A DNA stretch of 64,000 nt, taken from positions 142,848,001 through 142,912,000 of the forward strand of contig OZ024743.1 in the NCBI GenBank assembly GCA_964016885.1, in the 5' to 3' direction. Source of the DNA: Eledone cirrhosa (taxonomy: Eukaryota). This document shows, in pieces, positions 29,301-60,550 of this stretch. The notes beneath the pieces are model-generated. The model was not told the DNA's origin and did no database searches. It saw only the letters and a list, made by a program, of their open reading frames with translations. Both the position numbers and the translations under genes were made by a program. Every line of letters begins with the position of its first letter. The first letter of the stretch is position 1.

Positions 29301-29479
29301 CCAAGAACCAAACACCAAACACCAAGCACCAAGGACCAAACATCAAACACCAAGCACCAAGCACCAAAAACCTAACACCAAGTACCAAGCACCAAGCACC
29401 AAGCACCGAACACCAAGCACCAAACACCAAGCACCAAACACCAAGCACCAAGCACCAAACACCAAACACCAAGCACCAA

Positions 29480-32400
29480 GCACCAAGCACCAAACACCAA
29501 GCACCAGGCACCAAGCCCCAAACATCAAGCACCATGCACCAAACACCAAACACCAAGCACCAAGTACATACACCAAGCACCAAACACCAAACACAAAACA
29601 CCAAGCACCAAGCACCAAACACCAAGCACCAAGCACCAAGTACATACACCAAGCACCAAACACCAAACACAAAACACCAAGCACCAAACACCAAGCACCA
29701 AGCACCAAACATCAAACCCCAAGCACCAAGCACCAAACACTAATCACCCAGCACCAAGCACCAAGCACCAAACACCAAGCACCAAGCACCAAGCACCAAG
29801 TACCAAACACCAAACACCAAGCACCAAACACCAAACACCAAGCACCAAGCACCAGGCACCAAACACCAGGCACCAAGCACCAAACACCAGCCACCAAGCA
29901 CCAAGCACCAAACACCAAACACCAAGCACTAAGCACCAAACACCAAACAACAAGCACCAGGTACCGAGCACCAAACACCAAACAACAAGCACCAAGCACC
30001 AAGCACCAAACACCAAACACCAAACACCAAACACCAAACACCAAGCACCAAGCACCAAACACCAAACACCAAACAGCAAGCACCAAGCACCAAACACCAA
30101 GCACCAAGCACCAAACAACAAACACCAAGGACCATGCACCAAACACAAATCACCAAGCACCAAGCACCAAACACCAAGCACCAAGCAGTAAGCACCAAAC
30201 ACCAAACACCAAGCACCAAGCACCAAGCACCAAACACCAAGCACCAAGCACCAAACACCAAACCCCAAGCACCAAAGACCAAGCACCAAGCACCAAGGAC
30301 CAAACACCAAGCACCAAGCACCAAGCACCAAGCACCAAACACCAAGCACCAAGCACCAAACACCCAGCACCAAGCACCAAGCACCAAACACCAAGCACCA
30401 AGCACCAAACACCAAACACCAAACACCAAGCACCAAGCACCAAACAGCAAGCACCAAGCACCAAACACCAAGCACCAAGCACCAAACAACAAACACCAAG
30501 GACCATGCACCAAACACTAATCACCAAGCACCAAGCACCAAACACCAAACAGCAAGCACCAAACACCAAACACCAAACACCAAACACCAAACAGCAAGCA
30601 CCAAACACCAAACAGCAAACAGCAAACGCCAAACACCAAGCACCAAGCACCAAGCACCAAGCACCAAACACCAAGCACCAAGCACTAAGCATTAAACACC
30701 AAACACCAAGCACCAAGGACCAGGCACCAAACACCAAGCACCAAGCACCAAACACCAAACCCCAAGCACCATGCACCAAACACCAAACACCAAGCACCAA
30801 ACACCAGCCACCAAGCACCAAGCACCAAACACCAAACACCAAGCACTAAGCACCAAACACCAAACAACAAGCACCAGGCACCAAGCACTAAACACCAAAC
30901 AACAAGCACCAAGCACCAAACACCAAGCACCAAGCACCAAGCACCAAACACCAAGCACCAAGCACCAAACACCAAACACCAAACACCAAACACCAAACAC
31001 CAAGCACCAAGCACCAAACACCAAACACCAAACAGCAAGCACCAAGCACCAAACACCAAGCACCAAGCACCAAACAACAAACACCAAGGACGATGCACGA
31101 AACACTAATCACCAAGCACCAAGCACCAAACACTAAGCACCAAGCAGAAAGCACCAAACACCAAGCACCAAGCACCAAACACCAAGCACCAAGCACCAAA
31201 CACCAAACCCCAAGCACCAAAGACCAAGCACCAAGCACCAAGGCCCAAACACCAAGCACCAAGCACCAAACACCAAGCACCAAGCACCAAACACCCAGCA
31301 CCAAGCACCAAGCACCAAACACCAAGCACCAAGCACCAAACAACAAACACCAAACACCAAGCCCCAAGCACCGAACAGCAAGCACCAAACACCAAACACC
31401 AAACACCATACAGCAAACACCAAACACCAAGCACCAAGCACCAAACACCAAACCCCAAGCACCAAGCACTAAACACTAATATCCAAGCACCAAGCACCAA
31501 ACACCAAACACCAAACACCAAACACCAAAGACCAAGCACCAAGCACCAAGCAACAATCACCAAACAATAAGCACCAAGCACCAAGCACCAAACACCAAGC
31601 ACCAAGCACCAAACACCAACCACCCAGCACCAAGCACCAAGCATAAAACACCAAGCACCAAACACCAAACACCAAACACCAAGCACCAAGCACCAAGCAC
31701 CAAACACCAAGCACCAAGCACCAAGCACCAAACACCAAGCCCCAAGCACCAAGCACCAAACACCAAACACCAAGCACCAAGCACCAAACACCAAGCACCA
31801 AGCACCAAGCACCTAGCACCAATCACCAAACACCAAGCACCAAGCACCAAACACCAAGCACCAATCACCAAGCACCAAACACCAAGCAGCAAGCAGCAAG
31901 CACCAAACACGAAACACCAAGCACCAAGCACCAAACACCAAACACCAAGCACCAAGGACCAAACATCAAACACCAAGCACCAAGCACCAAACACCTAACA
32001 CCAAGCACCAAGCACCAAGCACCAAGCACCGAACACCAAGCACCAAACACCTAGCACCAAACACCAAGCACCAAGCACCAAACACCAAAGACCAAGCACC
32101 AAGCACCTAGCACCAAAGACAAAGCACCAGGCACCAAGCCCCAAACACCAAGCACCATGCACCAAACACCAAGCACCAAGCACGAAGCACCAAACACCAA
32201 GCACCAAGCACCAAACAATTAACACCAAGCACCAAGCACCAATCACCAAACACCAAGCACCAAACACCAAACACCAAGCACCAAACACAAAGCACCAAGC
32301 ACCAAACACCAAGCACCAAGCACCAAGCACCAAACACCAAGAACCAAGCACCAAACACCAAGCACCAAGCACTAAGTACATACACCAAGCACCAAACACC

Positions 32401-35400
32401 AAACACAAAACACCAAGCACCTGGCAACAAGCATCAAACACCAAGCATCAACCACCAAACACCAAGTACCAAGCACCAAACACCAAACACCAAGCACCAA
32501 GCACCAAGCACCAAACACCAAGCACCCAGCACCAAACACCAAGCACAAAGCACCAAGCACCAAACACCAAACACCAAGCACCAAGCACCAAACACCAAAA
32601 CCCAAACACTAGACACCAAGCACTAAACACGAAACACCAAACACCAAGCACCAAGCACCAAACACTAATCAGCAAGCACCAAGCACCAAACAACAAGCAC
32701 CAAGCACCAAGCACCGGGCACCAAGCACCAAGCACCAAACACAGAACACCAAGCACCAAGCACCAAGCACCATGCAGCAATAACCAAGCATCAAACACCA
32801 AACACCAAACACCAAGCACTAAACACCAAACACCAAGCACTAAGCACCAAGCACCAAGCACCAAACTCCAAGCACCCAGCACCAAACACCAAACACCAAG
32901 CACCAAGCACCAAACACCAAACACCAACACCAAGCACCAAGCACCAAACACCAAACACCAAGCACCAAACACCAGACACCAAGCACCAAACACCAAACAC
33001 CAAGCACCAAGCACCAAACACCAAACAACAAGCACCAGGCACCAAGCACCAAACACCAAGCACCAAGCACCAAACACCAAGCACCAAGCACCAAATGCCA
33101 AACACCAAGCACCAAGCACCAAACACCAAACACCAAACACCAAACACCAAACACCAAACAGCAAACACCAAATACGAAACAGCAAACACCTTACAGCAAA
33201 CACCAAATACCAAAAAGCAGACACTAAACAGCAAACACCAAACACCAAGCACTAAGCACAAAACACCAAACCCCAAGCATCAAGCACCAAACACTAATCA
33301 CCAAGCACCAACCACCAAACACCAAGCACCAAGCACCAAGCACCAAACACCAAGCACCAAGCACCAAGCACCAAACACCAAACACCAAGCACCAAAGACC
33401 AAGCACCAAGCACCAAACAACAAGCACCAAGCACCAAGCACCAAACACCAAGCACCAAGCACCAAACACCAACCAACCAGCACCAAGCACCAAGCACCAA
33501 ACAGCAAGCACCAAAAACCAAACAGCAAACAGCAAACGCCAAACACCAAGCACCAAGCACCAAACACCAAGCACCAAGCACCAAGCATTAAACACCAAAC
33601 AGCAAACACCAAACACGAAACAGCAAACACCATACAGCAAACACCAAACACCAAACACCAAGCACCAAACACCAAACCCCAAGCACCAAGCACCAAACAC
33701 TAATAACCAAGCACCAAGCACCAAGCACCAAACACCAAGCACCAAGCACCAAGCACCAAACACCAAGCACCAAGCACCAAGCACCAATCACCAAACAATA
33801 AGCACCAAGCACCAAGCACCAAACACCAAGCAACAAGCACCAAACACCAACCACCCAGCAACAAGCACCAAGCACAAAACACCAAGCACCAAACACCAAA
33901 CACCAAACACCAAGCACCAAGCACCAAGCACCAAACACCAAGCACCAAGCACCAAGCACCAAACACCAAGCCCCAAGCACCAAGCACCAAACACCAAACA
34001 CCAAGCACCAAGCACCAAACACCAAGCACCAAGCACCAAGCACCAAGCACCAATCACCAAGCACCAAACACCAAGCAGCAAGCAGCAAGCACCAAACACG
34101 AAACACCAAGCACCAAGCACCAAACACCAAACACCAAGCACCAAGGACCAAACATCAAACACCAAGCACCAAGCACCAAACACCTAACACCAAGCACCAA
34201 GCACCAAGCACCAAGCACCGAACACCAAGCACCAAACACCTAGCACCAAACACCAAGCACCAAGCACCAAACACCAAAGACCAAGCACCAAGCACCTAAC
34301 ACCAAACACAAAGCACCAGGCACCAAGCCCCAAACACCAAGCACCATGCACCAAACACCAAGCACCAAGCACGAAGCACCAAACACCAAGCACCAAGCAC
34401 CAAACACTTAACACCAAGCACCAAGCACCAAGCACCAAGCACCAAACACCAAGCACCAAACACCAAACACCAAGCACCAAACACCAAGCACCAAGCACCA
34501 AACACCAAGCACCAAGCACCAAGCACCAAACACCAAGAACCAAGCACCAAACACCAAGCACCAAGCACCAAGTACATACACCAAGCACCAAACACCAAAC
34601 ACAAAACACCAAGCACCAAGCAACAAGCATCAAACACCAAGTTTCACACACCAAACACCAAGTACCAAGCACCAAACACCAAACACCAAGCACCAAACAC
34701 CAAACACCAAGCACCAAGCACCAAACACCAAGCACCAAGCACCAAACGCCAAACACCAAGCACCAAGCAGCAAACACCAAGCACCAAACACCAAACACCA
34801 AACACCAAACAGCAAACACCAAATACGAAACAGCAAACACCATACAGCATACACCAAATACCAAAAAGCAGACACCAAACAGCAAACACCAAACAACAAG
34901 CACTAAGCACAAAACACAAAACCCCAGGCATCAAGCACCAAACACTAATCACCAAGCACCAACCACCAAACACCAAGCACCAAGCACCAAGCACCAAACA
35001 CCAAGCACCAAGCACCAAGCACCAAACACCAAACACCAAGCACCAAAGACCAAGCACCAAGCACCAAACAACAAGCACCAAGCACCAAGCACCAAACACC
35101 AAGCACCAAGCACCAAACACCAACCAACCAGCACCAAGCACCAAGCACCAAACAGCAAGCACCAAACACCAAACAGCAAACAGCAAACGCCAAACACCAA
35201 ACACCAAGCACCAAACACCAAGCACCAAGCACCAAGCATTAAACACCAAACAGCAAACACCAAACACGAAACAGCAAACACCATACAGCAAACACCAAAC
35301 ACCAAACACCAAGCACCAAACACCAAACCCCAAGCACCAAGCACCAAACACTAATAACCAAGCACCAAGCACCAAGCACCAAACACCAAGCACCAAACAC

Positions 35401-38400
35401 CAAGCACCAAGCACCAAGCACCAAACACCAAACACCAAACACCAAACACCAAGCACCAAGCACCAAACACCAAGCACCAGGCACCAAGCCCCAAACATCA
35501 AGCACCATGCACCAAACACCAAACACCAAGCACCAAGTACATACACCAAGCACCAAACACCAAACACAAAACACCAAGCACCAAGCACCAAACACCAAGC
35601 ACCAAGCACCAAGTACATACACCAAGCACCAAACACCAAACACAAAACACCAAGCACCAAACACCAAGCACCAAGCACCAAACATCAAACCCCAAGCACC
35701 AAGCACCAAACACTAATCACCCAGCACCAAGCACCAAGCACCAAACACCAAGCACCAAGCACCAAGCACCAAGTACCAAACACCAAACACCAAGCACCAA
35801 ACACCAAGCACCAAGCACCAGGCACCAAACACCAGGCACCAAGCACCAAACACCAGCCACCAAGCACCAAGCACCAAACACCAAACACCAAGCACTAAGC
35901 ACCAAACACCAAACAACAAGCACCAGGCACCAAGCACTAAACACCAAACAACAAGCACCAAGCACCAAACACCAAGCACCAAGCACCAAGCACCAAACAC
36001 CAAGCACCAAGCACCAAACACCAAACACCAAACACCAAACACCAAACACCAAGCACCAAGCACCAAACACCAAACACCAAACAGCAAGCACCAAGCACCA
36101 AACACCAAGCACCAAGCACCAAACAACAAACACCAAGGACGATGCACGAAACACTAATCACCAAGCACCAAGCACCAAACACTAAGCACCAAGCAGCAAG
36201 CACCAAACACCAAACACCAAGCACCAAACACCAAGCACCAAGCACCAAACACCAAACCCCAAGCACCAAAGACCAAGCACCAAGCACCAAGGCCCAAACA
36301 CCAAGCACCAAGCACCAAACACCAAGCACCAAGCACCAAACACCCAGCACCAAGCACCAAGCACCAAACACCAAGCACCAAGCACCAAACAACAAACACC
36401 AAACACCAAGCCCCAAGCACCGAACAGCAAGCACCAAACACCAAACACCAAACACCATACAGCAAACACCAAACACCAAGCACCAAGCACCAAACACCAA
36501 ACCCCAAGCACCAAGCACTAAACACTAATATCCAAGCACCAAGCACCAAACACCAAACACCAAACACCAAACACCAAAGACCAAGCACCAAGCACCAAGC
36601 AACAATCACCAAACAATAAGCACCAAGCACCAAGCACCAAACACCAAGCACCAAGCACCAAACACCAACCACCCAGCACCAAGCACCAAGCATAAAACAC
36701 CAAGCACCAAACACCAAACACCAAACACCAAGCACCAAGCACCAAACACCAAGCACCAAGCACCAAGCACCAAACACCAAGCCCCAAGCACCAAGCACCA
36801 AACACCAAACACCAAGCACCAAGCACCAAACACCAAGCACCAAGCACCAAGCACCTAGCACCAATCACCAAACACCAAGCACCAAGCACCAAACACCAAG
36901 CACCAATCACCAAGCACCAAACACCAAGCAGCAAGCAGCAAGCACCAAACACGAAACACCAAGCACCAAGCACCAAACACCAAACACCAAGCACCAAGGA
37001 CCAAACATCAAACACCAAGCACCAAGCACCAAACACCTAACACCAAGCACCAAGCACCAAGCACCAAGCACCGAACACCAAGCACCAAACACCTAGCACC
37101 AAACACCAAGCACCAAGCACCAAACACCAAAGACCAAGCACCAAGCACCTAGCACCAAAGACAAAGCACCAGGCACCAAGCCCCAAACACCAAGCACCAT
37201 GCACCAAACACCAAGCACCAAGCACGAAGCACCAAACACCAAGCACCAAGCACCAAACAATTAACACCAAGCACCAAGCACCAATCACCAAACACCAAGC
37301 ACCAAACACCAAACACCAAGCACCAAACACAAAGCACCAAGCACCAAACACCAAGCACCAAGCACCAAGCACCAAACACCAAGAACCAAGCACCAAACAC
37401 CAAGCACCAAGCACTAAGTACATACACCAAGCACCAAACACCAAACACAAAACACCAAGCACCTGGCAACAAGCATCAAACACCAAGCATCAAACACCAA
37501 ACACCAAGCACCAAGCACCAAGCACCAAACACCAAGCACCCAGCACCAAACACCAAGCACAAAGCACCAAGCACCAAACACCAAACACCAAGCACCAAGC
37601 ACCAAACACCAAAACCCAAACACTAGACACCAAGCACTAAACACGAAACACCAAACACCAAGCACCAAGCACCAAACACTAATCAGCAAGCACCAAGCAC
37701 CAAACAACAAGCACCAAGCACCAAGCACCGGGCACCAAGCACCAAGCACCAAACACAGAACACCAAGCACCAAGCACCAAGCACCATGCAGCAATAACCA
37801 AGCATCAAACACCAAACACCAAACACCAAGCACTAAACACCAAACACCAAGCACTAAGCACCAAGCACCAAGCACCAAACTCCAAGCACCCAGCACCAAA
37901 CACCAAACACCAAGCACCAAGCACCAAACACCAAACACCAACACCAAGCACCAAGCACCAAACACCAAACACCAAGCACCAAACACCAGACACCAAGCAC
38001 CAAACACCAAACACCAAGCACCAAGCACCAAACACCAAACAACAAGCACCAGACACCAAGCACCAAACACCAAGCACCAAGCACCAAACACCAAGCACCA
38101 AGCACCAAATGCCAAACACCAAGCACCAAGCACCAAACACCAAACACCAAACACCAAACACCAAACACCAAACAGCAAACACCAAATACGAAACAGCAAA
38201 CACCTTACAGCAAACACCAAATACCAAAAAGCAGACACTAAACAGCAAACACCAAACACCAAGCACTAAGCACAAAACACCAAACCCCAAGCATCAAGCA
38301 CCAAACACTAATCACCAAGCACCAACCACCAAACACCAAGCACCAAGCACCAAGCACCAAACACCAAGCACCAAGCACCAAGCACCAAACACCAAACACC

Positions 38401-40480
38401 AAGCACCAAAGACCAAGCACCAAGCACCAAACAACAAGCACCAAGCACCAAGCACCAAACACCAAGCACCAAGCACCAAACACCAACCAACCAGCACCAA
38501 GCACCAAGCACCAAACAGCAAGCACCAAAAACCAAACAGCAAACAGCAAACGCCAAACACCAAGCACCAAGCACCAAACACCAAGCACCAAGCACCAAGC
38601 ATTAAACACCAAACAGCAAACACCAAACACGAAACAGCAAACACCATACAGCAAACACCAAACACCAAACACCAAGCACCAAACACCAAACCCCAAGCAC
38701 CAAGCACCAAACACTAATAACCAAGCACCAAGCACCAAGCACCAAACACCAAGCACCAAGCACCAAGCACCAAACACCAAGCACCAAGCACCAAGCACCA
38801 ATCACCAAACAATAAGCACCAAGCACCAAGCACCAAACACCAAGCAACAAGCACCAAACACCAACCACCCAGCAACAAGCACCAAGCACAAAACACCAAG
38901 CACCAAACACCAAACACCAAACACCAAGCACCAAGCACCAAGCACCAAACACCAAGCACCAAGCACCAAGCACCAAACACCAAGCCCCAAGCACCAAGCA
39001 CCAAACACCAAACACCAAGCACCAAGCACCAAACACCAAGCACCAAGCACCAAGCACCAAGCACCAATCACCAAGCACCAAACACCAAGCAGCAAGCAGC
39101 AAGCACCAAACACGAAACACCAAGCACCAAGCACCAAACACCAAACACCAAGCACCAAGGACCAAACATCAAACACCAAGCACCAAGCACCAAACACCTA
39201 ACACCAAGCACCAAGCACCAAGCACCAAGCACCGAACACCAAGCACCAAACACCTAGCACCAAACACCAAGCACCAAGCACCAAACACCAAAGACCAAGC
39301 ACCAAGCACCTAACACCAAACACAAAGCACCAGGCACCAAGCCCCAAACACCAAGCACCATGCACCAAACACCAAGCACCAAGCACGAAGCACCAAACAC
39401 CAAGCACCAAGCACCAAACACTTAACACCAAGCACCAAGCACCAAGCACCAAGCACCAAACACCAAGCACCAAACACCAAACACCAAGCACCAAACACCA
39501 AGCACCAAGCACCAAACACCAAGCACCAAGCACCAAGCACCAAACACCAAGAACCAAGCACCAAACACCAAGCACCAAGCACCAAGTACATACACCAAGC
39601 ACCAAACACCAAACACAAAACACCAAGCACCAAGCAACAAGCATCAAACACCAAGCTTCACACACCAAACACCAAGTACCAAGCACCAAACACCAAACAC
39701 CAAGCACCAAACACCAAACACCAAGCACCAAGCACCAAACACCAAGCACCAAGCACCAAACGCCAAACACCAAGCACCAAGCACCAAACACCAAGCACCA
39801 AACACCAAACACCAAACACCAAACAGCAAACACCAAATACGAAACAGCAAACACCATACAGCATACACCAAATACCAAAAAGCAGACACCAAACAGCAAA
39901 CACCAAACAACAAACACTAAGCACAAAACACCAAACCCCAGGCATCAAGCACCAAACACTAATCACCAAGCACCAACCACCAAACACCAAGCACCAAGCA
40001 CCAAGCACCAAACACCAAGCACCAAGCACCAAGCACCAAACACCAAACACCAAGCACCAAATACCAAGCACCAAGCACCAAACAACAAGCACCAAGCACC
40101 AAGCACCAAACACCAAGCACCAAGCACCAAACACCAACCAACCAGCACCAAGCACCAAGCACCAAACAGCAAGCACCAAACACCAAACAGCAAACAGCAA
40201 ACGCCAAACACCAAACACCAAGCACCAAACACCAAGCACCAAGCACCAAGCATTAAACACCAAACAGCAAACACCAAACACGAAACAGCAAACACCATAC
40301 AGCAAACACCAAACACCAAACACCAAGCACCAAACACCAAACCCCAAGCACCAAGCACCAAACACTAATAACCAAGCACCAAGCACCAAGCACCAAACAC
40401 CAAGCACCAAACACCAAGCACCAAGCACCAAGCACCAAACACCAAACACCAAACACCAAACACCAAGCACCAAGCACCAA
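29480..40480 (+). repeat. HOR tandem duplication C: about 29480-35466 copied at about 35453-40480 (offsets 5973, 5966, 5049, 5042, 5014)
   Basis: ORF pairs 29525/35498 (+5973), 30888/35937 (+5049), 31995/37037 (+5042), and 33095/38109, 34949/39963 (+5014). Markers GGACGATGCACG, CTAATATCC and CACCTTACAGC are shared. Confidence 0.92.
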
Positions 40481-42468
40481 GCACCAATCACCAAACAATA
40501 AGCACCAAGCACCAAGCACCAAACACCAAGCACCAAGCACCAAACACCAACCACCCAGCAACAAGCACCAAGCACAAAACACCAAGCACCAAACACCAAA
40601 CACCAAACACCAAGCACCAAGCACCAAGCACCAAACACCAAGCACCAAGCACCAAGCACCAAACACCAGGCCCCAAGCACCAAGCACCAAACACCAAACA
40701 CCAAGCACCAAGCACCAAACACCAAGCACCAAGCACCAAGCACATAGCACCAAACACCAAACACCAAGCACCAAGCACCAAACACCAAGCACCAATCACC
40801 AAACACCAAACACCAAGCAGCAAGCAGCAAGCACCAAACACGAAACACCAAGCACCAAGCACCAAACACCAAACACCAAGCACCAAGGACCAAACATCAA
40901 ACACCAAGCACCAAGCACCAAACACCTAACACCAAGCACCAAGCACCAAACACCAAGCACCGAACACCAAGCACCAAACACCTAGCACCAAACACCAAGC
41001 ACCAAGCACCAAACACCAAAGACCAAGCACCAAGCACCTAGCACCAAACACAAAGCACCAGGCACCAAGCCCCAAACACCAAGCACCATGCACCAAACAC
41101 CAAGCACCAAGCACGAAGCACCAAACACCAAGCACCAAGCACCAAACACTTAACACCAAGCACCAAGCACCAAGCACCAAACACCAAGCACCAAACACCA
41201 AACACCAAGCACCAAACACCAAGCACCAAGCACCAAGCACCAAACACCAACAACCAAGCACCAAACACCAAGCACCAAGCACCAAGTACATACACCAAGC
41301 ACCAAACACCAAACACAAAACACGAAGCACCAAGCAACAAGCATCAAACACCAAGCATCACACACCAAACACCAAGTACCAAGCACCAAACACCAAACAC
41401 CAAGCACCAAGCACCAAACACCAAGCACCCAGCACCAAACACCAAGCACAAAGCACCAAGCACCAAACACCAAGCACCAAACACCAAACACCAAGCACCA
41501 AGCACCAAACACCAAACACCAAGCACCAAGCACCAAACACCAAAACCCAAACACTAGACACCAAGCACGAAACACCAAACACCAAACACCAAGCACCAAG
41601 CACCAAACACTAATCACCAAGCACCAAGCACCAAACAACAAGCACCAAGCACCATGCACCAGGCACCAAGCATCAAGCACCAAACACAGAACACCAAGCA
41701 CCAAGCACCAAGCACCAAGCAGCAAAAACCAAGCATCAAACACCAAACACCAAACACCAAGCACCAAACACCAAACACCAAGCACTAAGCACCAAACACA
41801 AAACACCAAGCACCAAGCACCAAACACCAAACACCAACACCAAGCACCAAGCACCAAACACCAAACACCAAGCACCAAACACCAGACACCAAGCACCAAA
41901 CACCAAACACCAAGCACCAAGCACCAAGCACCAAACACCAAACACCAAGCACCAAGCACCAAACACCAATCACAAAGCACCAAACGCCAAACACCAAGCA
42001 CCAGGCACCAAACACCAAGCACCAAACACCAAACACCAAACACCAAACAGCAAACACCAAATACGAAACAGCAAACACCATACAGCAAACACCAAATACC
42101 AAAAAGCAGACACCAAACAGCAAACACCAAACACCAAACACCAAGCACTAAGCACAAAACACTAAACCCCAAGCACCAAGCACCAAACTCTAATCACCAA
42201 GCACCAAGCACCAAACACCAAGCACCAAGCACCAAGCACCAATCACCAAACACCAAACACCAAGCACCAAAGACCAAGCACCAAGCACCAAACAACAAGC
42301 ACCAAGCACCAAGCACCAAACACCAAGCACCAAGCACCAAACACCAACCACCCAGCACCAAGCACCAAGCACCAAACACCAAGCACCAAACAGCAACCAC
42401 CAAAGAGCAAGCACCAAGCACCAAGCACCAAACACCAAGCACCAAGCACCAAGCACCAAACACCAAGC

Positions 42469-42508
42469 ACCAAGCACCAAGCACCAAGCTTGGTGCTTGG
42501 TGCTTGGT
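42469..42508. repeat. Spacer-less inversion junction: perfect 40-bp palindrome centred on AAG|CTT (42486-42491)
   Basis: ...ACCAAGCACCAAGCACCAAG|CTTGGTGCTTGGTGCTTGGT... has 20-bp exact arms, with the first mismatch at 42509 (A). Confidence 0.97.
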
Positions 42509-45500
42509 ATTTGGTGCTTGGTGCTTGGTGTTTGGTGTTTGGCGCTTGGTGCTTGGTGTTTGGTGCTTGGTGCTGCTTGGTGTTTGGTGCTTGGCGTTTG
42601 GTGCTTGGAGCTTGGTGCTTGGTTTTTGGTGCTTGGTGCTTGGTGCTTGGTGCTTGGTGTCTGGTGCTTGGTGTTTGGTGCTTGGTGTTTGGTGCTTGGT
42701 GCTTGGTGCTTGGTGTTTGGTGCTTGGTGTTTGGTGCTTGGTGCTTGGTGCTAGGTGTTTGGTGTTTAGTGTTTGGCGCTTGGTGCTTGGTGTTTGGTGA
42801 TTGGTGCTTGGTGTTTGGTGTCTGGTGATTGGTGCTTGGTGTTTGGTGTTTGGTGCTTGGTGCTTGGTGTTTGGTGTTTGGTGCTTGTCGCTTGGTGTTT
42901 GGTGTTTGGTGATTGGCGTTTGCTGTTTGGCGTTTGGGGTTTGGCATTTGCTGTTTGGCGTATGGGGCTTGGCGTTTGCTTTTTGGTGTTTGCTGTTTGG
43001 TGTTTGGTGCTTGGTGTTTGGTGTTTGGTACTTGGTGTTTGGTGCTTGGTGTTTGGTGTTTGGTGCTTGGCGCTTGGTGTTTGGTGTTTGGCGCTTGGCG
43101 TTTGCTGTTTGGCGTTTGGGGTTTGGCATTTGCTGTTTGGCGTTTGGGGTTTGGCGTTTGCTTTTTGGCGTTTGCTGTTTGGTGTTTGCTGTTTGGTGTT
43201 TGCTGTTTGGTGTTTGCTGTTTGGTGTTTGGTGTTTGGTGTTTGCTGGTTGGTGTTTGGTGTTTGGTGTTTGCTGTTTGGTGTTTGCTGTTTGGTGCTTG
43301 GTGCTTGGTGCTTGGTGTTTTGTGCTTGGTGTTTTGTGTTTGGTGCTTGGTGCTTGGGGTTGGGTGTTTGGTGCTTGGTGTTTGCTGTTTGGTGCTTGGT
43401 GCTTTGTGTTTGGTGCTTGGTGCTTGGTGCTTGGTGCTTGGTGCTTGGTGCTTAGTGCTTGGTGTTTGGTGTTTAGTGCTTGGTGCTTGGTGTTTGGTGT
43501 TTGGTGCTTGGTGCTTGGTGTTTGGTGCTTGGTGTTTGGTGCTTGGTGCTTGGTATTTGGCGCTTGGTCTTTGGTGCTTGGTGTTTGGTGCTTGGTGCAT
43601 GGTGCTTGGTGTTTGGTGCTTGGTGCTTGGTCCTAGGTGTTTGGTGTTTAGTGCTTGGTGCTTGGTGATTGGTGCTTGTTGCTTGGTGCTTGGTGTTTGG
43701 TGCTTGGTGCTTGGTGTTTGGTGTTTTGTGTTTGCTGTTTGCTGTTTGGTGTTTGCTATTTGGTGTTTGCTGTTTGGTGTTTGCTGTTTGGTGTTTGCTG
43801 TTTGGTGTTTGGTGTTTGGTGTTTGGTGCTTGGTGCTTGGTGCTTGGTGTTTGGTGTTTGGTGCTTGGTGCTTGGTGTTTGGTGTTTGGTGCTTGGTGCT
43901 TGGTGTTTGGTGCTTGGTGCTTGCTGGTTGGCGTTTGGTGTTTGGTGTTTGCTGTTTGGCGTTTGGTGTTTGGCGTTTAATGTTTGGCGTTTGGTGTTTG
44001 GTGTTTGGTATTTGCTGGTTGGTGTTTGGTGTTTGGTGTTTGCTGTTTGGTGTTTGCTGTTTGGTGTTTGCTGTTTGCTGTTTGGTGTTTGGTGTTTGGT
44101 TTTTGCTGTTTGGTGTTTGGTGCTTGGTGTTTGTTGCTTGGTGCTTGGTGTTTGGTGTTTAGTGCTTGGTATTTGGTGCTTGGTGTGTGGTGTTTGGCGC
44201 TTGGTGCTTGGTGTTTGGTGCTTGGTGCTTGGTGTTTGTTGTTTGGTGTTTGTTGTTTGGTGCTTGGTGTTTGGTGCTTGGTGCTTGGTGTCTGGTGCTT
44301 GGTGTTTGGTGCTTGGAGTTTGGTGCTTGGTGCTTGGTGCTTGGTGTTTGGTGCTTGGTATTTGGTGTTTGGTGCTTGGTGCTTGGTGTTTGGTGTTTGG
44401 TGCTTGGTGCTTGGTGTTTGGTGTTTGGTGCTTGGTGCTTGGTGTTTGGTGTTTGGTGTTTGGTGTTTGGTGTTTGGTACTTGGTGCTTGGTGCTTGGTA
44501 TTTGGTGCTTGGTGCTTGGTGTTTGGTGTTTGGCGCTTGGTGCTTGGTGTTTGGTGCTTGGTGCTTGGTGTTTGGTGTTTGGTGCTTGGTGTTTGGTGCT
44601 TGGAGCTTGGTGCTTGGTTTTTGGTGCTTGGTGCTTGGTGCTTGGTGCTTGGTGTCTGGTGCTTGGTGTTTGGTGCTTGGTGTTTGGTGCTTGGTGCTTG
44701 GTGCCTGGTGTTTGGTGCTTGGTGTTTGGTGCTTGGTAGTTGGTGCTAGGTGTTTGGTGTTTGGTGTTTGGCACTTGGGGCTTGGTGTTTGGTGATTGGT
44801 GCTTGGTGTTTGGTACTTGGTGCTTGGTGCTTGGTGTTTGGTGTTTGGTGCTTGGCGCTTGGTGTTTGGTGTTTGGCGCTTGGCGTTTGCTGTTTGGCGT
44901 TTGGGGTTTGGCATTTGCTGTTTGGCGTTTGCTGTTTGGTGTTTGCTGTTTGGTGTTTGGTGTTTGGTGTTTGCCGGTTGGTGTTTGGTGTTTGGTGTTT
45001 GCTGTTTGGTGTTTGCTGTTTGGTGCTTGGTGCTTGGTGTTTGGTGTATGGTGCTTGGTGCTTGGTGCTTGGTGTTTGGTGCTTGGTGCTTGGTGTTTGG
45101 TGCTTGGGGCTTGGTGCTTGGTGTTTGGTGCTTGGTGTTTGGTGTTTGGTGCTTGGTACTTGGTGTTTGGTGTTTGGTGCTTGGTGTTTGCTGTTTGGTG
45201 CTTGGTGCTTTGTGTTTGGTGCTTGGTGCTTGGTGCTTGGTGCTTGGTGCTTGGTGTTTGGTGTTTGGTGCTTGGTGCTTGATGTTTGGTGTTTGGTGCT
45301 TGGTGCTTAGTGTTTGGTGCTTGGTGTTTGGTGCTTGGTGCTTGGTGTCTGGTGCTTGGTGCTTGGTGCTTGGTGTTTGGTGCTTGGTGTTTGGTGCTTG
45401 GTGTTTGGTGCTTGGTGTTTGGTGTTTGGTGCTTAGTGCTTGGTGTTTGGTGCTTGGTGCTTGGTGCTTGGTGTTTGGTGCTTGGTGCTTGGTGCTTGGT

Positions 45501-46155
45501 GCTTGGTGTTTCGTGTTTAGTGCTTGGTGCTTGGTATTTGGTGTTTGGTGCTTAGTGCTTGGTGTTTGGTGTTTGGTGCTTGGTGCTTGGTGTTTGGTGT
45601 TTGCTGTTTGCTGTTTGTTGTTTGGTGATTCGTGATTGGTGTTTGATGTTTGGTGTTTGGTGTTGGGTGTTTGGTGCTTGGGGCTTGGTGTTTGCTCTTT
45701 GGTGCTTGGTGATTGGTGTTTGGTGTTGGGTGCTTGGTGCTTGGTGTTTGGTGCTTGGTGCTTGGTGCTTGGTGATTGGTGCTTTGTGTTTGTTGCTTGG
45801 TGCTTGGTGCTTGGCGATTGGTGCTTGGTGCTTGGTGTTTGATGTGGTGCTTGGTGTTTGGTGTTTGGTATTTGGTGCTTGGTGCTTCATGCTTGGTGTT
45901 TGGTGTTTGTTTTATGGTGCATGGTGTTTGGTGCTTGGGATTTGGTGCTTGGTGCTTGGTGTTTGGTGTTTGGAGTTTGGTACTTGGTGCTTGGTGTTTG
46001 TGTTTGGTGCTTGGTGCTTGGTGTTTAGTGTTTAGTGATTGGTGCTTGGTTCTTGGTGTTTGGTGCTTGGTGCTTGGTGATTGGTGTTTGGTGCTTGGTG
46101 CTTGGTATTTGGTGCTTGGTCTTTGGTGCTTGGTGTTTGGTGCTTGGTGCTTGGT

Positions 46156-49100
46156 GCTTGGTGTTTGGTGCTTGTTGCTTGGCGTTTGGTGCTTGGTGCT
46201 TTGTGCTTGGTGTTTGGTGCTTGGTGCTTGGTGCTTGGTGTTTGGTGTTTAGTGCTTGGTGCTTGGTGATTGGTGCTTATTGATTGGTGCTTGGTGTTTG
46301 GTGCTTGGTGTTTGGTGTTTGGTGTTTGGTGTTTGCTGTTTGCTGTTTGGTGTTTGCTGTTTGGTGTTTGTTGTTTGGTGTTTGCTGTTTGGTGTTTGCT
46401 ATTTGGTGTTTGGTGTTTGCTGTTTGCTGTTTGGTGTTTGGTGTTTGCTGTTTGGCGTTTGGTGTTTGGCGTTTGCTGTTAGGCATCTGGTGGCTGGCAT
46501 TTGCTGTTTGGCGTTTGTTGTTTGGTGTTTGCTGTTTGCTGTTTGGTGTTTGCTGTTTGCTGTTTGTTTGGTGTTTGCTGTTTGGTGTTTGGTGTTTGCT
46601 GTTTGCTGTTTGGTGTTTGGTGTTTGGTGTTTGCTGTTTGGTGTTTGGTGTTTACTGTTTGGTGTTTGGTGTTTGTTGTTTGGTGATTGGTGTTTGCTGT
46701 TTGGTGTTTGGTGTTTGGTGATTGGTGTTTGCTGTTTGGTGTTTGGTGCCTGGTGTTTGGTGTTTGGTGATTGGTGCTTGGTGCTTGGTGTTTGGTGCTT
46801 GGTGCTTGGTGCTTGGTGCTTGGTGCTTGGTGCTTGGTGTTTGGTGTTTGGTGCTTGATGCTTGGTTTTTGGTGTTTGGTGATTGGTGTTTGGTGTTTGG
46901 TGCTTGGTGCTTGGTGCTTGGTGCTTGTTGTTTGGTGCTTGGTGCTTGGTGCTTGGTGTTTGGTGTTTAGTGTTTGCTGTTTGGTGTTTGGTGTTTGCTG
47001 TTTGGTGTTTGCTATTTGGTGTTTGCTGTTTGCTGTTTGCTGTGTGGTGTTTGGTGTTTGGTGTATGATGCTTGGTGCTTGGTTTTTTTCTCTTTGGTGC
47101 TTGGTGCTTGGTGTTTGGTGCTTGGTGCTTGGTGTTTGGTGTTTGGTGATTGGTGCTTGGTGTTTGCTGTTTGGTGCTTGGTGCTTGGTGTTTGGTGCTT
47201 GGTGCTTGGTGCTTGCTGCTTGGTGGTTGGTGCTTGGTGCTTGGTGTTTGGTGCTTGGTGCTTGGTGCTTGGTGTTTGGTGCTTGGTGCTTGGTGCTTGG
47301 TGTTTGCTGTTTAGTGCTTGGTGCTTGGTGTTTGCTGGTTGGTGTTTGGTGTTTGGTGTTTGCTGTTTGGTGTTTGCTGTTTGGAGTTTGGTGTTTGCTG
47401 TTTGGTGTTTGGTGATTGGTGCTTGGTGTCTGGTGCTTGGTGTTTGGTGCTTGGTGTTTGGTGCTTGGTGCTTGGTGCTTGGTGTTTGGTGCTTGGTGCC
47501 TGGTGCTTGGTGCTTGGTATTTGGTGTTTGGTGGTTGGTGCTTGGTGTTTGGTGTTTGGTGCTTGGTGCTTGGTGTTTGGTGTTTGGTGCTTGGGGCTTG
47601 GTGTTTGGTGTTTGGTGTTTGGTGTTTGGTGTTTGGTGCTTGTTGCTTGGTGCTTGGTATTTGGTGCTTGGTGCTTGGTGATTGGTGCTTGGTGCTTGGT
47701 GTTTGGTGTTTGGTGCTTGGTGTTTGGTGCTTGGAGCTTGGTGCTTGGTTTTTGGTGCTTGGTGCTTAGTGCTTGGTGTCTGGTGCTTGGTGTTTGGTGT
47801 TTGGTGTTTTGTGGTAGGTGCTTGGTACTTGGTGTTTTGTGTTTGGTGCTTGGTGCTTGGTGCTTGGTGCTTGGTGTTTGGTGCTTGGTGCATGATGCTT
47901 GGTGCTTGGTGCTTGGTGTTTGGTGTTTAGTGCTTGGTGCTTGGTATTTGGTGTTTGGTGCTTGGTGCTTGGTGTTTGGTGTTTGGTGCTTGGTGCTTGG
48001 TGTTTGGTGTTTGCTGCTTGGTTCTTGGTGTTTGGTGATTGGTGCTTGGTACTTGGTGTTTGGTGCTCGGTGCTTGGTGCTTGGTGTTTCATGCTTGGTG
48101 CTTGGTGTTTGGTCTTTGGCACTTGGTGCTTGGTGTTTGGTGCTTGGTGCTTGGTGTTTGGTGTTTGGTGTTTGGTGCTTGGTGCTTGGTGCTTGGTGTT
48201 TGGTGTTTGCTGCTTGGTTCTTGGTGCATGGTGCCTGGTGTTTGGTGTTCGGAGTTTGGTACTTGGTGCTTGGTGTTTGGTGTTTGGTGCTTGGTGCTTG
48301 GTGTTTGGTGTTTAGTGCTTGGTGCTTGGTGTTAGTTGTTTGGTGTTTAGTGCTTGGTGCTTGGTATTTGGTGTTTGGTGCTTGGTGCTTGGTGTTTGGT
48401 GTTTGGTGCTTGGTGCTTGGTGTTTGGTGTTTGCTGCTTGGTTCTTGGTGCTTGGTGCCTGGTGTTTGGTGTTCGGAGTTTGGTACTTGGTGCTTGGTGT
48501 TTGGTGCTTGGTGCTTGGTGTTTGGTGTTTAGTGATTGGTGCTTGGTGTTTGGTGTTTGGTGCTTGGTCCTTGGTGTGTGGTGCTTGGTCCTTGGTGCTT
48601 GGTTTTTGGTGCTTGGTGCTTTGTGCTTGGTGCTTGGTGTTTGGTGCTTGGTGCTTGGCGTTTGGTTCTTGGTGCTTGGTGCTTGGTGTTTGGTGCTTGG
48701 TGCTTGGTGCTTGGTGTTTGGTGTTTAGGGCTTGGTGCTTGGTGATTGGTGCTTGTTGCTTGGTGCTTGGTGTTTGGTGCTTGGTGCTTTGTGTTTGGTG
48801 TTGGGTGTTTGCTGTTTGCTGTTTGGTGTTTGCTGTTTGGTGTTTGCTGTTTGGTGTTTGCTGTTTGGTGTTTGGTGTTTGGTGTTTGCTGTTTGGTGTT
48901 TGGTGTTTGCTGTTTGGTGTTTGGTGTTTTGTGTTTGGTGTTTAGTGTTTGCTGTTTGGTGTTTGGTGTTTGGTGTTTGGTGTTTGGTGCTTGGTGCTTG
49001 GTACTTGGTGTTTTGTGTTTGGTGCTTGGTGCTTTGTGCTTGGTGCTTGGTGGTTGGTGCTTGGTGTTTGGTGTTTGGAGCTTGGTGCTTGGTGTTTTGT

Positions 49101-52100
49101 GCTTGGTGCCTGGTGATTGGTGTTTGGTGTTTGGTGCTTGGTGTTTGGTTGTTTGGTGTTTGGTGTTTGTGTTTGCTGTTTGGCGTTTGCTGTTTGGTGT
49201 TTGCTGTTTGGTGTTTGCTGGTTGGTGTTTGCTGTTTAGTGTTTGGTGTTTGGTGTTTGGTGTTTGGTGCTTGGGGCTTGGTGTTTGCTCTTTGGTGCTT
49301 GGTGATTGGTTTTTGGTGTTTGGTGCTCGGTGCTTGGTGTATGCTGTTTGGTGCTTGGTGCTTGGTGCTTGGTGCTTGGTATTTGGTGTTTGGTGCTTGG
49401 TGCTTGGTGTTTGGTGTTTCGTGCTTGGTGCTTGGTTCTGGGTGCTTGGTGCTTGGTGTTTGGTGTTTGGTGCTTGACGCTTGGTGTTTGGTGCTTGGGG
49501 CTTGGTGATTGGTGTTTGGTGCTTGGTGATTGGTGCTTGGTGTTTGGTGTTTGGTGCTTGGTGCTTGGTGTTCGGTGTTTGGTGCTTGGCGTTTGGGGTA
49601 TGGCGTTTGCTGTTTGGCGTTTGGGTTTTGGCATTTGCTTTTTGGCGTTTGGTGCTTGGCGTTTGCTGTTTGGTGTTTGCTTTTTAGTGTTTGGTGTTTG
49701 GTGTTTGCTGGTTGGTGTTTGGTGCTTGGGGCTTGGTGTTTGGTGCTTGGTGCTTGGTGCTCCGTGTTTGGTGCTTGGTGTTTGGTGTTGGTTCTTGGTG
49801 TTTGGTGCTCGGTGCTTGGTGCTTGGTGTTTGGTGCTTGGTGCTTGGCGCTTGGTGTTTGGCGTTTAGTGCTTGGTGCTTGGTGTTTGGTGTTTGGTGCT
49901 TGGTGCTAGGTGTTTGGTGTTTGGTGCTTGGTGCTTGGTGTTTGGCGTTTCGTGCTTGGCGCTTGCTGTTTGGCGTTTGGTGTTTGGCGTTTGCTGTTTG
50001 GCGTTTGGTGTTTGGCGTTTGATGTTTGGCGTTTGCTGTTTGGTGTTTGGTGTTTGGTGTTTGCTGTTTGGTGTTTGCTGTTTGGTGTTTGGTGTTTGCT
50101 GTTTGGTGTTTGGTGTTTGGTGTTTGCTGTTTGCTGTTTGGTGTTTGGTGTTTGGTGTTTGGTGCTTGGTGCTTGGTGCTTGGTATTTGGTGCTTGGTGC
50201 TTATTGTTTGGTGTTTGGCGCTTGGTGCTTGGTGTTTGGGGCTTGGTGTTTGGTGCTTGTTGCTTGGCGTTTGGTGCTTGGTGCTTTGTGCTTGGTGTTT
50301 GGTGCTTGGTGCTTGGTGCTTGGTGTTTGGTGTTTAGTGCTTGGTGCTTGGTGATTGGTGCTTATTGATTGGTGCTTGGTGTTTGGTGCTTGGTGTTTGG
50401 TGTTTGGTGTTTGGTGTTTGCTGTTTGCTGTTTGGTGTTTGCTGTTTGGTGTTTGTTGTTTGGTGTTTGCTGTTTGGTGTTTGCTATTTGGTGTTTGGTG
50501 TTTGCTGTTTGCTGTTTGGTGTTTGGTGTTTGCTGTTTGGCGTTTGGTGTTTGGCGTTTGCTGTTAGGCATCTGGTGGCTGGCATTTGCTGTTTGGCGTT
50601 TGTTGTTTGGTGTTTGGTGTTTGCTGTTTGCTGTTTGGTGTTTGCTGTTTGCTGTTTGTTTGGTGTTTGCTGTTTGGTGTTTGGTGTTTGCTGTTTGCTG
50701 TTTGGTGTTTGGTGTTTGGTGTTTGCTGTTTGGTGTTTGGTGTTTACTGTTTGGTGTTTGGTGTTTGTTGTTTGGTGATTGGTGTTTGCTGTTTGGTGTT
50801 TGGTGTTTGGTGATTGGTGTTTGCTGTTTGGTGTTTGGTGCCTGGTGTTTGGTGTTTGGTGATTGGTGCTTGGTGCTTGGTGTTTGGTGCTTGGTGCTTG
50901 GTGCTTGGTGCTTGGTGCTTGGTGCTTGGTGTTTGGTGTTTGGTGCTTGATGCTTGGTGTTTGGTGTTTGGTGATTGGTGTTTGGTGTTTGGTGCTTGGT
51001 GCTTGGTGCTTGGTGCTTGTTGTTTGGTGCTTGGTGCTTGGTGCTTGGTGTTTGGTGTTTAGTGTTTGCTGTTTGGTGTTTGGTGTTTGCTGTTTGGTGT
51101 TTGCTATTTGGTGTTTGCTGTTTGCTGTTTGCTGTGTGGTGTTTGGTGTTTGGTGTATGATGCTTGGTGCTTGGTTTTTTTCTCTTTGGTGCTTGGTGCT
51201 TGGTGTTTGGTGCTTGGTGCTTGGTGTTTGGTGTTTGGTGATTGGTGCTTGGTGTTTGCTGTTTGGTGCTTGGTGCTTGGTGTTTGGTGCTTGGTGCTTG
51301 GTGCTTGCTGCTTGGTGGTTGGTGCTTGGTGCTTGGTGTTTGGTGCTTGGTGCTTGGTGCTTGGTGTTTGGTGCTTGGTGCTTGGTGCTTGGTGTTTGCT
51401 GTTTAGTGCTTGGTGCTTGGTGTTTGCTGGTTGGTGTTTGGTGTTTGGTGTTTGCTGTTTGGTGTTTGCTGTTTGGAGTTTGGTGTTTGCTGTTTGGTGT
51501 TTGGTGATTGGTGCTTGGTGTCTGGTGCTTGGTGTTTGGTGCTTGGTGTTTGGTGCTTGGTGCTTGGTGCTTGGTGTTTGGTGCTTGGTGCCTGGTGCTT
51601 GGTGCTTGGTATTTGGTGTTTGGTGGTTGGTGCTTGGTGTTTGGTGTTTGGTGCTTGGTGCTTGGTGTTTGGTGTTTGGTGCTTGGGGCTTGGTGTTTGG
51701 TGTTTGGTGTTTGGTGTTTGGTGTTTGGTGCTTGTTGCTTGGTGCTTGGTATTTGGTGCTTGGTGCTTGGTGATTGGTGCTTGGTGCTTGGTGTTTGGTG
51801 TTTGGTGCTTGGTGTTTGGTGCTTGGAGCTTGGTGCTTGGTTTTTGGTGCTTGGTGCTTAGTGCTTGGTGTCTGGTGCTTGGTGTTTGGTGTTTGGTGTT
51901 TTGTGGTAGGTGCTTGGTACTTGGTGTTTTGTGTTTGGTGCTTGGTGCTTGGTGCTTGGTGCTTGGTGTTTGGTGCTTGGTGCATGATGCTTGGTGCTTG
52001 GTGCTTGGTGTTTGGTGTTTAGTGCTTGGTGCTTGGTATTTGGTGTTTGGTGCTTGGTGCTTGGTGTTTGGTGTTTGGTGCTTGGTGCTTGGTGTTTGGT

Positions 52101-54241
52101 GTTTGCTGCTTGGTTCTTGGTGTTTGGTGATTGGTGCTTGGTACTTGGTGTTTGGTGCTCGGTGCTTGGTGCTTGGTGTTTCATGCTTGGTGCTTGGTGT
52201 TTGGTCTTTGGCACTTGGTGCTTGGTGTTTGGTGCTTGGTGCTTGGTGTTTGGTGTTTGGTGTTTGGTGCTTGGTGCTTGGTGCTTGGTGTTTGGTGTTT
52301 GCTGCTTGGTTCTTGGTGCATGGTGCCTGGTGTTTGGTGTTCGGAGTTTGGTACTTGGTGCTTGGTGTTTGGTGTTTGGTGCTTGGTGCTTGGTGTTTGG
52401 TGTTTAGTGCTTGGTGCTTGGTGTTAGTTGTTTGGTGTTTAGTGCTTGGTGCTTGGTATTTGGTGTTTGGTGCTTGGTGCTTGGTGTTTGGTGTTTGGTG
52501 CTTGGTGCTTGGTGTTTGGTGTTTGCTGCTTGGTTCTTGGTGCTTGGTGCCTGGTGTTTGGTGTTCGGAGTTTGGTACTTGGTGCTTGGTGTTTGGTGCT
52601 TGGTGCTTGGTGTTTGGTGTTTAGTGATTGGTGCTTGGTGTTTGGTGTTTGGTGCTTGGTCCTTGGTGTGTGGTGCTTGGTCCTTGGTGCTTGGTTTTTG
52701 GTGCTTGGTGCTTTGTGCTTGGTGCTTGGTGTTTGGTGCTTGGTGCTTGGCGTTTGGTTCTTGGTGCTTGGTGCTTGGTGTTTGGTGCTTGGTGCTTGGT
52801 GCTTGGTGTTTGGTGTTTAGGGCTTGGTGCTTGGTGATTGGTGCTTGTTGCTTGGTGCTTGGTGTTTGGTGCTTGGTGCTTTGTGTTTGGTGTTGGGTGT
52901 TTGCTGTTTGCTGTTTGGTGTTTGCTGTTTGGTGTTTGCTGTTTGGTGTTTGCTGTTTGGTGTTTGGTGTTTGGTGTTTGCTGTTTGGTGTTTGGTGTTT
53001 GCAGTTTGGTGTTTGGTGTTTTGTGTTTGGTGTTTAGTGTTTGCTGTTTGGTGTTTGGTGTTTGGTGTTTGGTGTTTGCTGGTTGGTGTTTGCTGTTTAG
53101 TGTTTGGTGTTTGGTGTTTGGTGTTTGGTGCTTGGGGCTTGGTGTTTGCTCTTTGGTGCTTGGTGATTGGTTTTTGGTGTTTGGTGCTCGGTGCTTGGTG
53201 TATGCTGTTTGGTGCTTGGTGCTTGGTGCTTGGTGCTTGGTATTTGGTGTTTTGTGTTTGGTGCTTGGTGCTTTGTGCTTGGTGCTTGGTGGTTGGTGCT
53301 TGGTGTTTGGTGTTTGGAGCTTGGTGCTTGGTGTTTTGTGCTTGGTGCCTGGTGATTGGTGTTTGGTGTTTGGTGCTTGGTGTTTGGTTGTTTGGTGTTT
53401 GGTGTTTGTGTTTGCTGTTTGGCGTTTGCTGTTTGGTGTTTGCTGTTTGGTGTTTGCTGGTTGGTGTTTGCTGTTTAGTGTTTGGTGTTTGGTGTTTGGT
53501 GTTTGGTGCTTGGGGCTTGGTGTTTGCTCTTTGGTGCTTGGTGATTGGTTTTTGGTGTTTGGTGCTCGGTGCTTGGTGTATGCTGTTTGGTGCTTGGTGC
53601 TTGGTGCTTGGTGCTTGGTATTTGGTGTTTGGTGCTTGGTGCTTGGTGTTTGGTGTTTCGTGCTTGGTGCTTGGTTCTGGGTGCTTGGTGCTTGGTGTTT
53701 GGTGTTTGGTGCTTGACGCTTGGTGTTTGGTGCTTGGGGCTTGGTGATTGGTGTTTGGTGCTTGGTGATTGGTGCTTGGTGTTTGGTGTTTGGTGCTTGG
53801 TGCTTGGTGTTCGGTGTTTGGTGCTTGGCGTTTGGGGTATGGCGTTTGCTGTTTGGCGTTTGGGTTTTGGCATTTGCTTTTTTGGCGTTTGGTGCTTGGC
53901 GTTTGCTGTTTGGTGTTTGCTTTTTAGTGTTTGGTGTTTGGTGTTTGCTGGTTGGTGTTTGGTGCTTGGGGCTTGGTGTTTGTACTTGGTGCTTGGTGCT
54001 CCGTGTTTGGTGCTTGGTGTTTGGTGCTTGGTTCTTGGTGTTTGGTGCTCGGTGCTTGGTGCTTGGTGTTTGGTGCTTGGTGCTTGGCGCTTGGTGTTTG
54101 GCATTTAGTGCTTGGTGCTTGGTGTTTGGTGTTTGGTGCTTGGTGCTAGGTGTTTGGTGTTTGGTGCTTGGTGCTTGGTGTTTGGCGTTTCGTGCTTGGC
54201 GCTTGCTGTTTGGCGTTTGGTGTTTGGCGTTTGCTGTTTGG
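46156..54241 (-). repeat. HOR tandem duplication D: about 46156-50240 copied at about 50241-54241 (offsets 4085, 4092, about 4239)
   Basis: ORF pairs 46256/50341 (+4085), 46771/50863, 47318/51410, 48354/52446 (+4092), and 49306/53545 (+4239). Markers TTAGGCATCTGGTGGCTGGC and GGTTTTTTTCTC are shared. Confidence 0.94.
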
Positions 54242-60200: not shown

Positions 60201-60550
60201 TCTTGGTGTTTGGTGCTTGGTGTTTGGTGCTTGGTGGTTGGTGCTTGATGTTTGGTGCTTGGTGCTTGGTGTTTGGTGTTTGGCGCTTGGTGCTTGGTGT
60301 TTGGTGCTTGGTGCTTGGTGTTTGGTGTTTGGTGCTTGGTGCTTGCTGTCTGGTGTTTGGTGCTTGGTTCTTGGTGTTTGGTGATTGGTGCCTGGTACTT
60401 GGTGTTTGGTGCTCGGTGCTTGGTGCTTGGTGTTTCGTGCTTGGTGCTTGGTGTTTGGTCTTTGACGCTTGGTGCTTGGTGTTTGGTGCTTGGTACTTGG
60501 TGTTCGGTGTTTGGTGTTAGGTGTTTGGTGCTTGGTGCTTGGTGCTTGGT
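54240..60550 (-). repeat. HOR duplication E: about 54240-56330 copied at about 58490-60550 (offsets 4251, then 4216)
   Basis: ORF pairs 54266/58517, 54489/58740 (+4251) and 55224/59440, 55539/59755, 56036/60252 (+4216). Marker GGTATTTTCTATTTGTTG is shared. Confidence 0.9.
56360..57450 (-). repeat. Dispersed copy of about 49880-50970 (offset 6479)
   Basis: Identical ORFs 50341/56820, 50355/56834, 50586/57065. Marker AGGCATCTGG occurs at 50566 and 57045. Confidence 0.88.

Follow-up and report, generated by a model that had tools for sequence, protein, structure and literature searches.

A strand switch in a 7-bp satellite array of Eledone cirrhosa and its copies on one chromosome

Inversions of polarity within one satellite family are known from several genomes. 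Human HSat3B5 (chromosome 9) and beta-satellite arrays contain more than 200 inversion breakpoints, as given in the available text of the report (10.1101/2021.07.12.452052). The number of switches in beta-satellite and HSat3 arrays scales with array length (r = 0.90), and the passages concerned read them as a by-product of expansion (10.64898/2026.07.22.740206). In Tribolium, thousands of sites with symmetries of up to 75 kb, formed by monomers of 110-700 bp, are described for many chromosomes (accessible parts of PMC13081366 and 10.1101/2024.12.02.626372). A few types of inversion site recur there as near-identical copies, 98-99% in T. madens (PMC13081366, in part) and 95-99.9% in T. freemani (10.1101/2024.12.02.626372, in part). 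Hairpin potential was predicted for these sites and a function only proposed (PMC13081366, in the sections available). According to the same sections of this 2026 paper, macro-dyad symmetries are documented only in that genus (PMC13081366). A comparable fate is reported for insertions: a single transposon insertion with shared target-site duplications was multiplied by array duplication (10.64898/2026.09.17.752431, available text). Rules of palindrome instability were taken from the available part of a review (PMC7999016). Whether conserved satellite inversion sites are functional or mere passengers is a live question, and the array described here provides a natural control.

The strand switch and its two arms

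The window, the whole stretch of 64,000 nt that was analyzed, corresponds to C4:142.848-142.912 Mb of the 3.0-Gb assembly and consists entirely of a 7-bp satellite, CACCAA(G/A). CACCAAG and CACCAAA together account for 72% of the monomers to the left of the switch and for 64% to its right. No paper describing this heptamer satellite was found by motif among open papers. The C-rich strand of the satellite is on the plus strand at 1-42488 and the G-rich strand at 42489-64000. No 100-bp bin of the window contained a word of the minority strand, and GC skew changed from about -0.63 to +0.64, with the flip in the 42-44 kb bin.

An initial annotation of this DNA stated that the array flips exactly at AAG|CTT, with zero spacer and mirrored monomer phase. 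This was true. Polarity switches at 42488|42489 (junction J1) without a spacer or a foreign base and with the monomer phase kept. The following features were assigned:

1..42488, plus strand: arm A, CACCAA(G/A) of subfamily A, C-rich on the plus strand, lying in a 732-kb C-oriented domain
39653..39658, no strand: second AAGCTT (HindIII) site, a point variant without strand switch
42380..42422, plus strand: variant stretch of arm A, junction-linked on the basis of a 35-bp marker
42469..42508, no strand: perfect 40-bp palindrome (20 + 20 bp) of J1; its 30-bp core has nine exact copies and a tenth with one change
42488..42489, no strand: GC dinucleotide common to both arms, the putative 2-bp microhomology of the join
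42489..64000, minus strand: arm B, the same heptamer, subfamily B, C-rich on the minus strand; end of a block whose opposite boundary in the remaining ten copies is J2
42573..42582, minus strand: 10-bp monomer (3-bp insertion) in arm B, which breaks the mirror register about 90 bp from the center
44480..44549, minus strand: 70-bp paralogue, uninterrupted and identical, of the arm-B sequence at the junction; it lies 1,991 bp into arm B

Each palindrome arm is 20 bp long with 55% GC. The AAGCTT site had been thought to be unique in the window, pending a string search, which revealed the second site at 39653. HindIII alone is not diagnostic for J1.

The two arms were compared with each other. Mirror identity outward from the center was 100% up to 20 bp, 77.5% at 20-100 bp and 31-45% past 100 bp. 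The 25 best gapped arm-arm alignments showed 83.3-84.2% identity at many offsets, and the mirror phase was not preferred. No long diagonal between arm A and arm B was found within the window, and arm A of the window shared no 500-bp diagonal with arm B of any of three other copies (3/3). Both arms harbor a CAGCAAA-rich block about 55-70 monomers from the center. When in-phase AAG|C joins between the arms were drawn at random (200,000 joins), a perfect arm of at least 20 bp was obtained in 4.95%. Arms A and B are different subfamilies and not mirror copies. The giant inverted repeat of at least 21.5 kb per side that had been claimed holds only at the monomer level; past 20 bp the arms are about 83.5% alike and unmirrored. 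Since the arms past 20 bp represent different, unmirrored subfamilies, a recent fold-back is excluded, and arms that mirror each other outward, as expected of a fold-back inverted duplication, were not found.

The arms also differ in composition. Nested repeats gave diagonals at 7459, 5014 and 3178 bp in arm A and at about 4.1-4.25 kb and 6.5 kb in arm B. The CpG density of arm B was twice that of arm A (7.9 vs 3.8 per kb), and the density of an alternating-monomer marker was about one ninth. A subfamily of its own in the inverted B block is expected if orientation shields the block from homogenization.

Copies of the junction and architecture of the array

The 30-bp core of J1 had nine exact matches genome-wide, all on C4 between 130.4 and 142.9 Mb. 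With up to three mismatches allowed, 13 matches were found in the genome, 13 of 13 on C4. The search of the assembly for further junctions, as proposed earlier, returned ten matches with no or one mismatch and one deleted derivative. The assembly thus holds 11 descendants of J1, all on C4 (nine exact, one with a point change and one with its center deleted), with copy number and order taken from a single assembly, in which the array is broken by a gap at 137.41 Mb. All nine exact copies connect the same A end to the same B end, seven in one direction and two, including the window copy, in the opposite direction; for all 11 descendants the orientations are nine and two. Neighbors of the same orientation are spaced by 0.4-1.8 Mb. 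The 35-bp marker from 42380..42422 had nine matches in the genome, every one about 90 bp from a J1 copy.

The similarity of the copies extends into both flanks. Relative to the window copy, arm A was collinear to about 4.3 kb in seven of eight copies and to 3.4 kb in L012, and arm B was collinear over at least 4.0 kb in seven of eight copies, L013 being rearranged. Divergence among the copies was 0.2-3.6%, with private substitutions and indels, and when copies were aligned, frequent indels split the flanks into 2-10 blocks per 3 kb. For three copies that were compared further, A matched A and B matched B over tens of kilobases. In these comparisons of arm B with three of three other copies, 500-bp diagonals covered 40-66% per 5-kb bin, and 0% in A-versus-B controls. 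The deleted descendant (L108, C4:131,693,278) has lost about 0.5-0.75 kb asymmetrically across the center, a size that varies with the reference copy chosen, and the strand still switches.

The satellite block on C4 comprises 14.6 Mb. It starts at about 128.82 Mb and ends between 143.40 and 143.44 Mb, which places the array at 34-38% along the 378.8-Mb contig. Pattern search and probing mapped 31 polarity changes, which strictly alternate; unread parts may hide pairs. Direct joins, in eight types, account for 29 of the changes, and two lie across the gap or an island of other repeats. The domains measure 14-1,343 kb. J1 and J2 are present in ten copies each, J4 in three and J3 in two. Each of the ten J2 copies lies 105-256 kb from J1 or from the deleted J1 derivative, and a partner switch of opposite type bounding an inverted block was present for 10 of the 11 J1 descendants, the window copy being the exception. 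No J2 partner of the window copy was found; 143.003-143.090 Mb was read through and was G-oriented, as were further probes up to 143.40 Mb. DNA sampled between J2 and J1 was B-type, so that the stretch from J2 to J1 is a B block in inverted orientation within an array that is mostly A-type. This block recurs every 0.4-1.8 Mb. We infer that J2 and J1 are the ends of one B block, possibly as reciprocal products of one simple inversion.

At the five base-resolved types, which carry no insert, the overlaps were 2 bp (J1), 1 bp (J2), 0 bp (J3), 2 bp (J4) and 2 bp (J6); J5, J7 and the deleted J1 are outside this base-level set. A palindrome arm longer than 2 bp was present in only one of the eight types, J1. 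The J4-J2-J1 set seen at 130.0-130.4 Mb is found again, in inverted form, at 134.5-135.0 Mb. A large inverted duplication about J6 (134,466,820) was seen at C4:134.43-134.98 Mb, with J1 copies flanking J6 in opposite orientation 35 kb to the left and 59 kb to the right. As a true long inverted repeat, this duplication is a stronger candidate than J1 of the window. The closest pair of J1 copies was L006/L009, with six differences in 2,643 bp and six in 2,972 bp.

A 35-bp marker of the satellite had 5,872 matches in the genome, and the first 100 listed were on C2 (250.87-251.15 Mb) and C4. The C2 locus, on a different chromosome-scale contig, is a small second array of the heptamer with ten marker matches. 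Sampled marker density was 546 per Mb in interior probes and 60 in B blocks. By these densities the C4 array alone can account for the total, and by this rough reckoning the heptamer is probably not a repeat of all centromeres.

Other repeats were observed in and around the array. An island at C4:140.04-140.11 Mb contains a unit of about 6.16 kb composed of 11-12 bp repeats, which are AT-rich and occur in either orientation, together with (TA)n tracts, and then at least 38 kb of a second satellite with a ATTATCTCCCC core. No ORF of 150 aa was present in locus L117 (140.04 Mb) of this island. At C4:137.411 Mb (L113:370-1200) the assembly gap is followed by 0.6 kb of the second satellite with the ATTATCTCCCC core; from J3 on, this region matches the layout of 139.6-140.1 Mb, so the gap probably hides a collapsed copy of the island. 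To the left of the array, at C4:125.0 and 127.0 Mb, two other satellites with units of about 11 bp and 28 bp were recognized by eye, which suggests a wider repeat-rich block around the array. Short dispersed inverted repeats ending in the same 9-mer were seen on C1, C2, C3, C5, C6, C12, C15, C20, C21 and C108. Several of them surround (TA)n tracts, and the three loci viewed were non-array DNA.

Origin, persistence and possible function of J1

Between the canonical strand and its own reverse complement, GC is the sole shared word of more than one base, and zero spacer and mirrored phase are therefore automatic. A join of canonical monomers with a GC overlap is always in phase and spacerless and makes AAGCTT. 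Uninterrupted paralogues of both arms continue one base beyond the center, which results in a 2-bp GC overlap. This overlap backs microhomology joining, one of two routes proposed in the initial annotation. The single additional T that was considered necessary for a self-complementary AGCT is dispensable, as the GC overlap suffices. Taken as a whole, the palindrome of J1 is best read as a by-product of joining at GC, a reading that we consider likely. The join itself would have occurred by end joining or template switch. Among open papers we found none that traced amplified satellite junctions to microhomology joins.

The second proposed route, fold-back (hairpin) priming, would have made a true inverted duplication whose arms have since diverged past recognition. 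Zero spacer, in-phase symmetry and the CAGCAAA-rich block at similar distance in both arms (about 55-70 monomers out) agree with it. The alignments, however, gave no advantage to the mirror phase, and same-arm copies differ by 0.2-3.6% compared to about 16% between A and B. Moreover, the 70-bp end of arm B has an identical, uninterrupted paralogue inside arm B, which shows that the B half of the palindrome belongs natively to B and was not templated from A. A fold-back origin is already largely refuted and, in our estimate, hardly credible. That J1 or most of its copies are artefacts of assembly or library (mis-join, chimeric reads or haplotype duplication) is extremely unlikely. Short-read contigs from two public runs cross the center with no differences and reach arm-specific bases (X1, 42474-42516, depth 188.5; X3, 42461-42503, depth 77.3), though with fewer than 31 bases on one side, below the 31-base bridging bar, and from one sample that is perhaps the assembly's own source. 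No pieces crossing the center were among the rows listed for X2 and X4. The N gap inside the array (137.41 Mb) would also fit an artefact. Independently of the contigs, the private substitutions and indels of the copies argue against a mis-join, as does the alternation of all mapped switches. Our main reading would not be affected if copy number alone were wrong.

The annotation had also suggested that the junction may be a structural site. In this case J1 would be a selected site whose hairpin or short cruciform binds proteins of chromatin or the centromere, and its ten copies would organize the array. A single strand across J1 folds strongly (-104.9 kcal/mol for 200 nt; z = -18 against 200 shuffles). 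Modelled extrusion of the duplex, before junction and supercoiling terms, costs only 12.6 kcal/mol up to 20 bp, and rises to 28 at 30 bp, 85 at 100 bp and 161 at 200 bp; for a perfect mirror control it was 12.6 kcal/mol throughout. Because this modelled cost climbs steeply past 20 bp, a giant cruciform is unlikely, while a short cruciform or a transient hairpin on the lagging strand is possible. The center is kept in 10 of 11 copies, as selection would also produce, and conserved inversion sites of Tribolium were read as possibly functional in the text available (PMC13081366), where the authors themselves nevertheless state the absence of experimental evidence (PMC13081366). Conservation did not support a structural site. 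Mismatches per 1000 within 100 bp were 4.0 and 4.4 for J1, 10.0 and 2.3 for J2 and 0-18 for five internal anchors, with L013 excluded from the arm-B counts because of its rearrangement. J1 is no more conserved than internal landmarks, at the low power that ten young copies allow. An apparent conservation gradient toward J1 was rejected as an anchoring effect, as five internal anchors and J2-J4 were similarly low adjacent to the anchor. Furthermore, seven of the eight junction types lack a palindrome, the core is deleted in one copy and mutated in another, and every J1 match is on one chromosome. A selected structural site is therefore unlikely. We consider equally doubtful the idea that J1, recurring every 0.4-1.8 Mb, nucleates a short cruciform or a hairpin on the lagging strand and is retained as a repeated structural node in a macro-repeat of megabase size. 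If it were such a node, macro-dyad organization of the Tribolium type would extend to a heptamer satellite, to a tenfold larger scale and to another animal genome. A role of the palindrome as a fragile site, which would stall replication and itself bring about the megabase duplications and the local rearrangements, is very unlikely. Inverted repeats with short spacers can stall forks, according to the available part of the review (PMC7999016), and in L013 arm B shows a rearrangement within a few hundred bases. The center was deleted (0.5-0.75 kb) in one of 11 J1 copies and in none of ten copies of the non-palindromic J2, but 1/11 versus 0/10 is hardly a difference at such counts, and the flanks have many indels along their whole length. 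Both flanks were copied along with J1, which places it within the duplicated units and not at their edges. Its arm of only 20 bp with 55% GC is not of the long, near-perfect and AT-rich PATRR-like kind.

J1 is likely an old inversion breakpoint that was amplified passively with the array by large duplications, and not a functional site. At the join, the two different subfamilies A and B face each other in opposite orientation; their ends overlap by the 2 bp GC, and nothing is inserted between them. A single join, by microhomology or near-blunt end joining or by template switch, would have formed this contact at one end of a B block of 100-250 kb that was inverted, or inserted inverted, with J2 as the other end. 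The 11 diverged copies of J1 carry both flanks, and unequal exchange or break-induced replication may have duplicated megabase units with J1 inside. J1 can persist without selection: slippage and in-register recombination, which depend on direct repeats, have no means of removing a polarity switch. In principle, a switch would be erased only when both ends are lost together or by a non-homologous deletion that leaves another switch. The only deletion observed across the center of J1 did leave a new strand switch. Judged from sequence, satellite inversion sites in this array are favored to be passengers.

Comparison with known systems

The C-rich strand runs into the junction at J1. At telomere fusions, it is the G-rich strand that enters the junction 5' to 3' on either side, and a telomere-fusion scar was rejected because of the wrong polarity. 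J1 shares with fold-back duplications and fragile palindromes a zero-spacer center that is able to form a hairpin. It differs from them in that the arms are not mutual copies and that the perfect arm is 20 bp long and not AT-rich. As in the transposon insertions in satellite arrays, one unique event was multiplied by array duplication; here the marker is a polarity switch without foreign DNA.

As in Tribolium, multi-kilobase inverted sub-arrays of one satellite are present, and the copies of an inversion site closely resemble each other (for J1, about 4 mismatches per 1000 within 100 bp). Unlike in Tribolium, the monomer has 7 bp, there are about ten copies per type and the domains measure 14-1,343 kb. 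The same inversion sites were not found on several chromosomes, all 13 matches being on C4. Instead of a layout mostly of two sub-arrays of a few to 75 kb, a single array shows 31 changes. A (peri)centromeric location, another mark of the Tribolium type, is possible for the C4 array, which lies at 34-38% of its contig. In addition, conservation was tested explicitly here, and no excess was found. Since palindromic J1 and non-palindromic J2 were amplified together ten times in the same units, the two lend themselves to direct comparison in any assay for chromatin or breakage. As unique landmarks, the junctions also reveal duplications of 0.4-1.8 Mb, some of them inverted, in an otherwise unmappable 7-bp array.

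The human HSat3B5, beta- and alpha-satellite arrays likewise show strand switches within one satellite family and many breakpoints, and they resemble the C4 array in their origin from simple repeats, in kilobase nested repeats and in macro-repeats. Monomer and genome are different, and J1 is traced here to a probable single ancestral join, while the main-text passages on the human arrays trace none. We concluded that J1 is to be filed as an intra-array satellite inversion breakpoint of the HSat3/beta-satellite type and is ordinary in kind.
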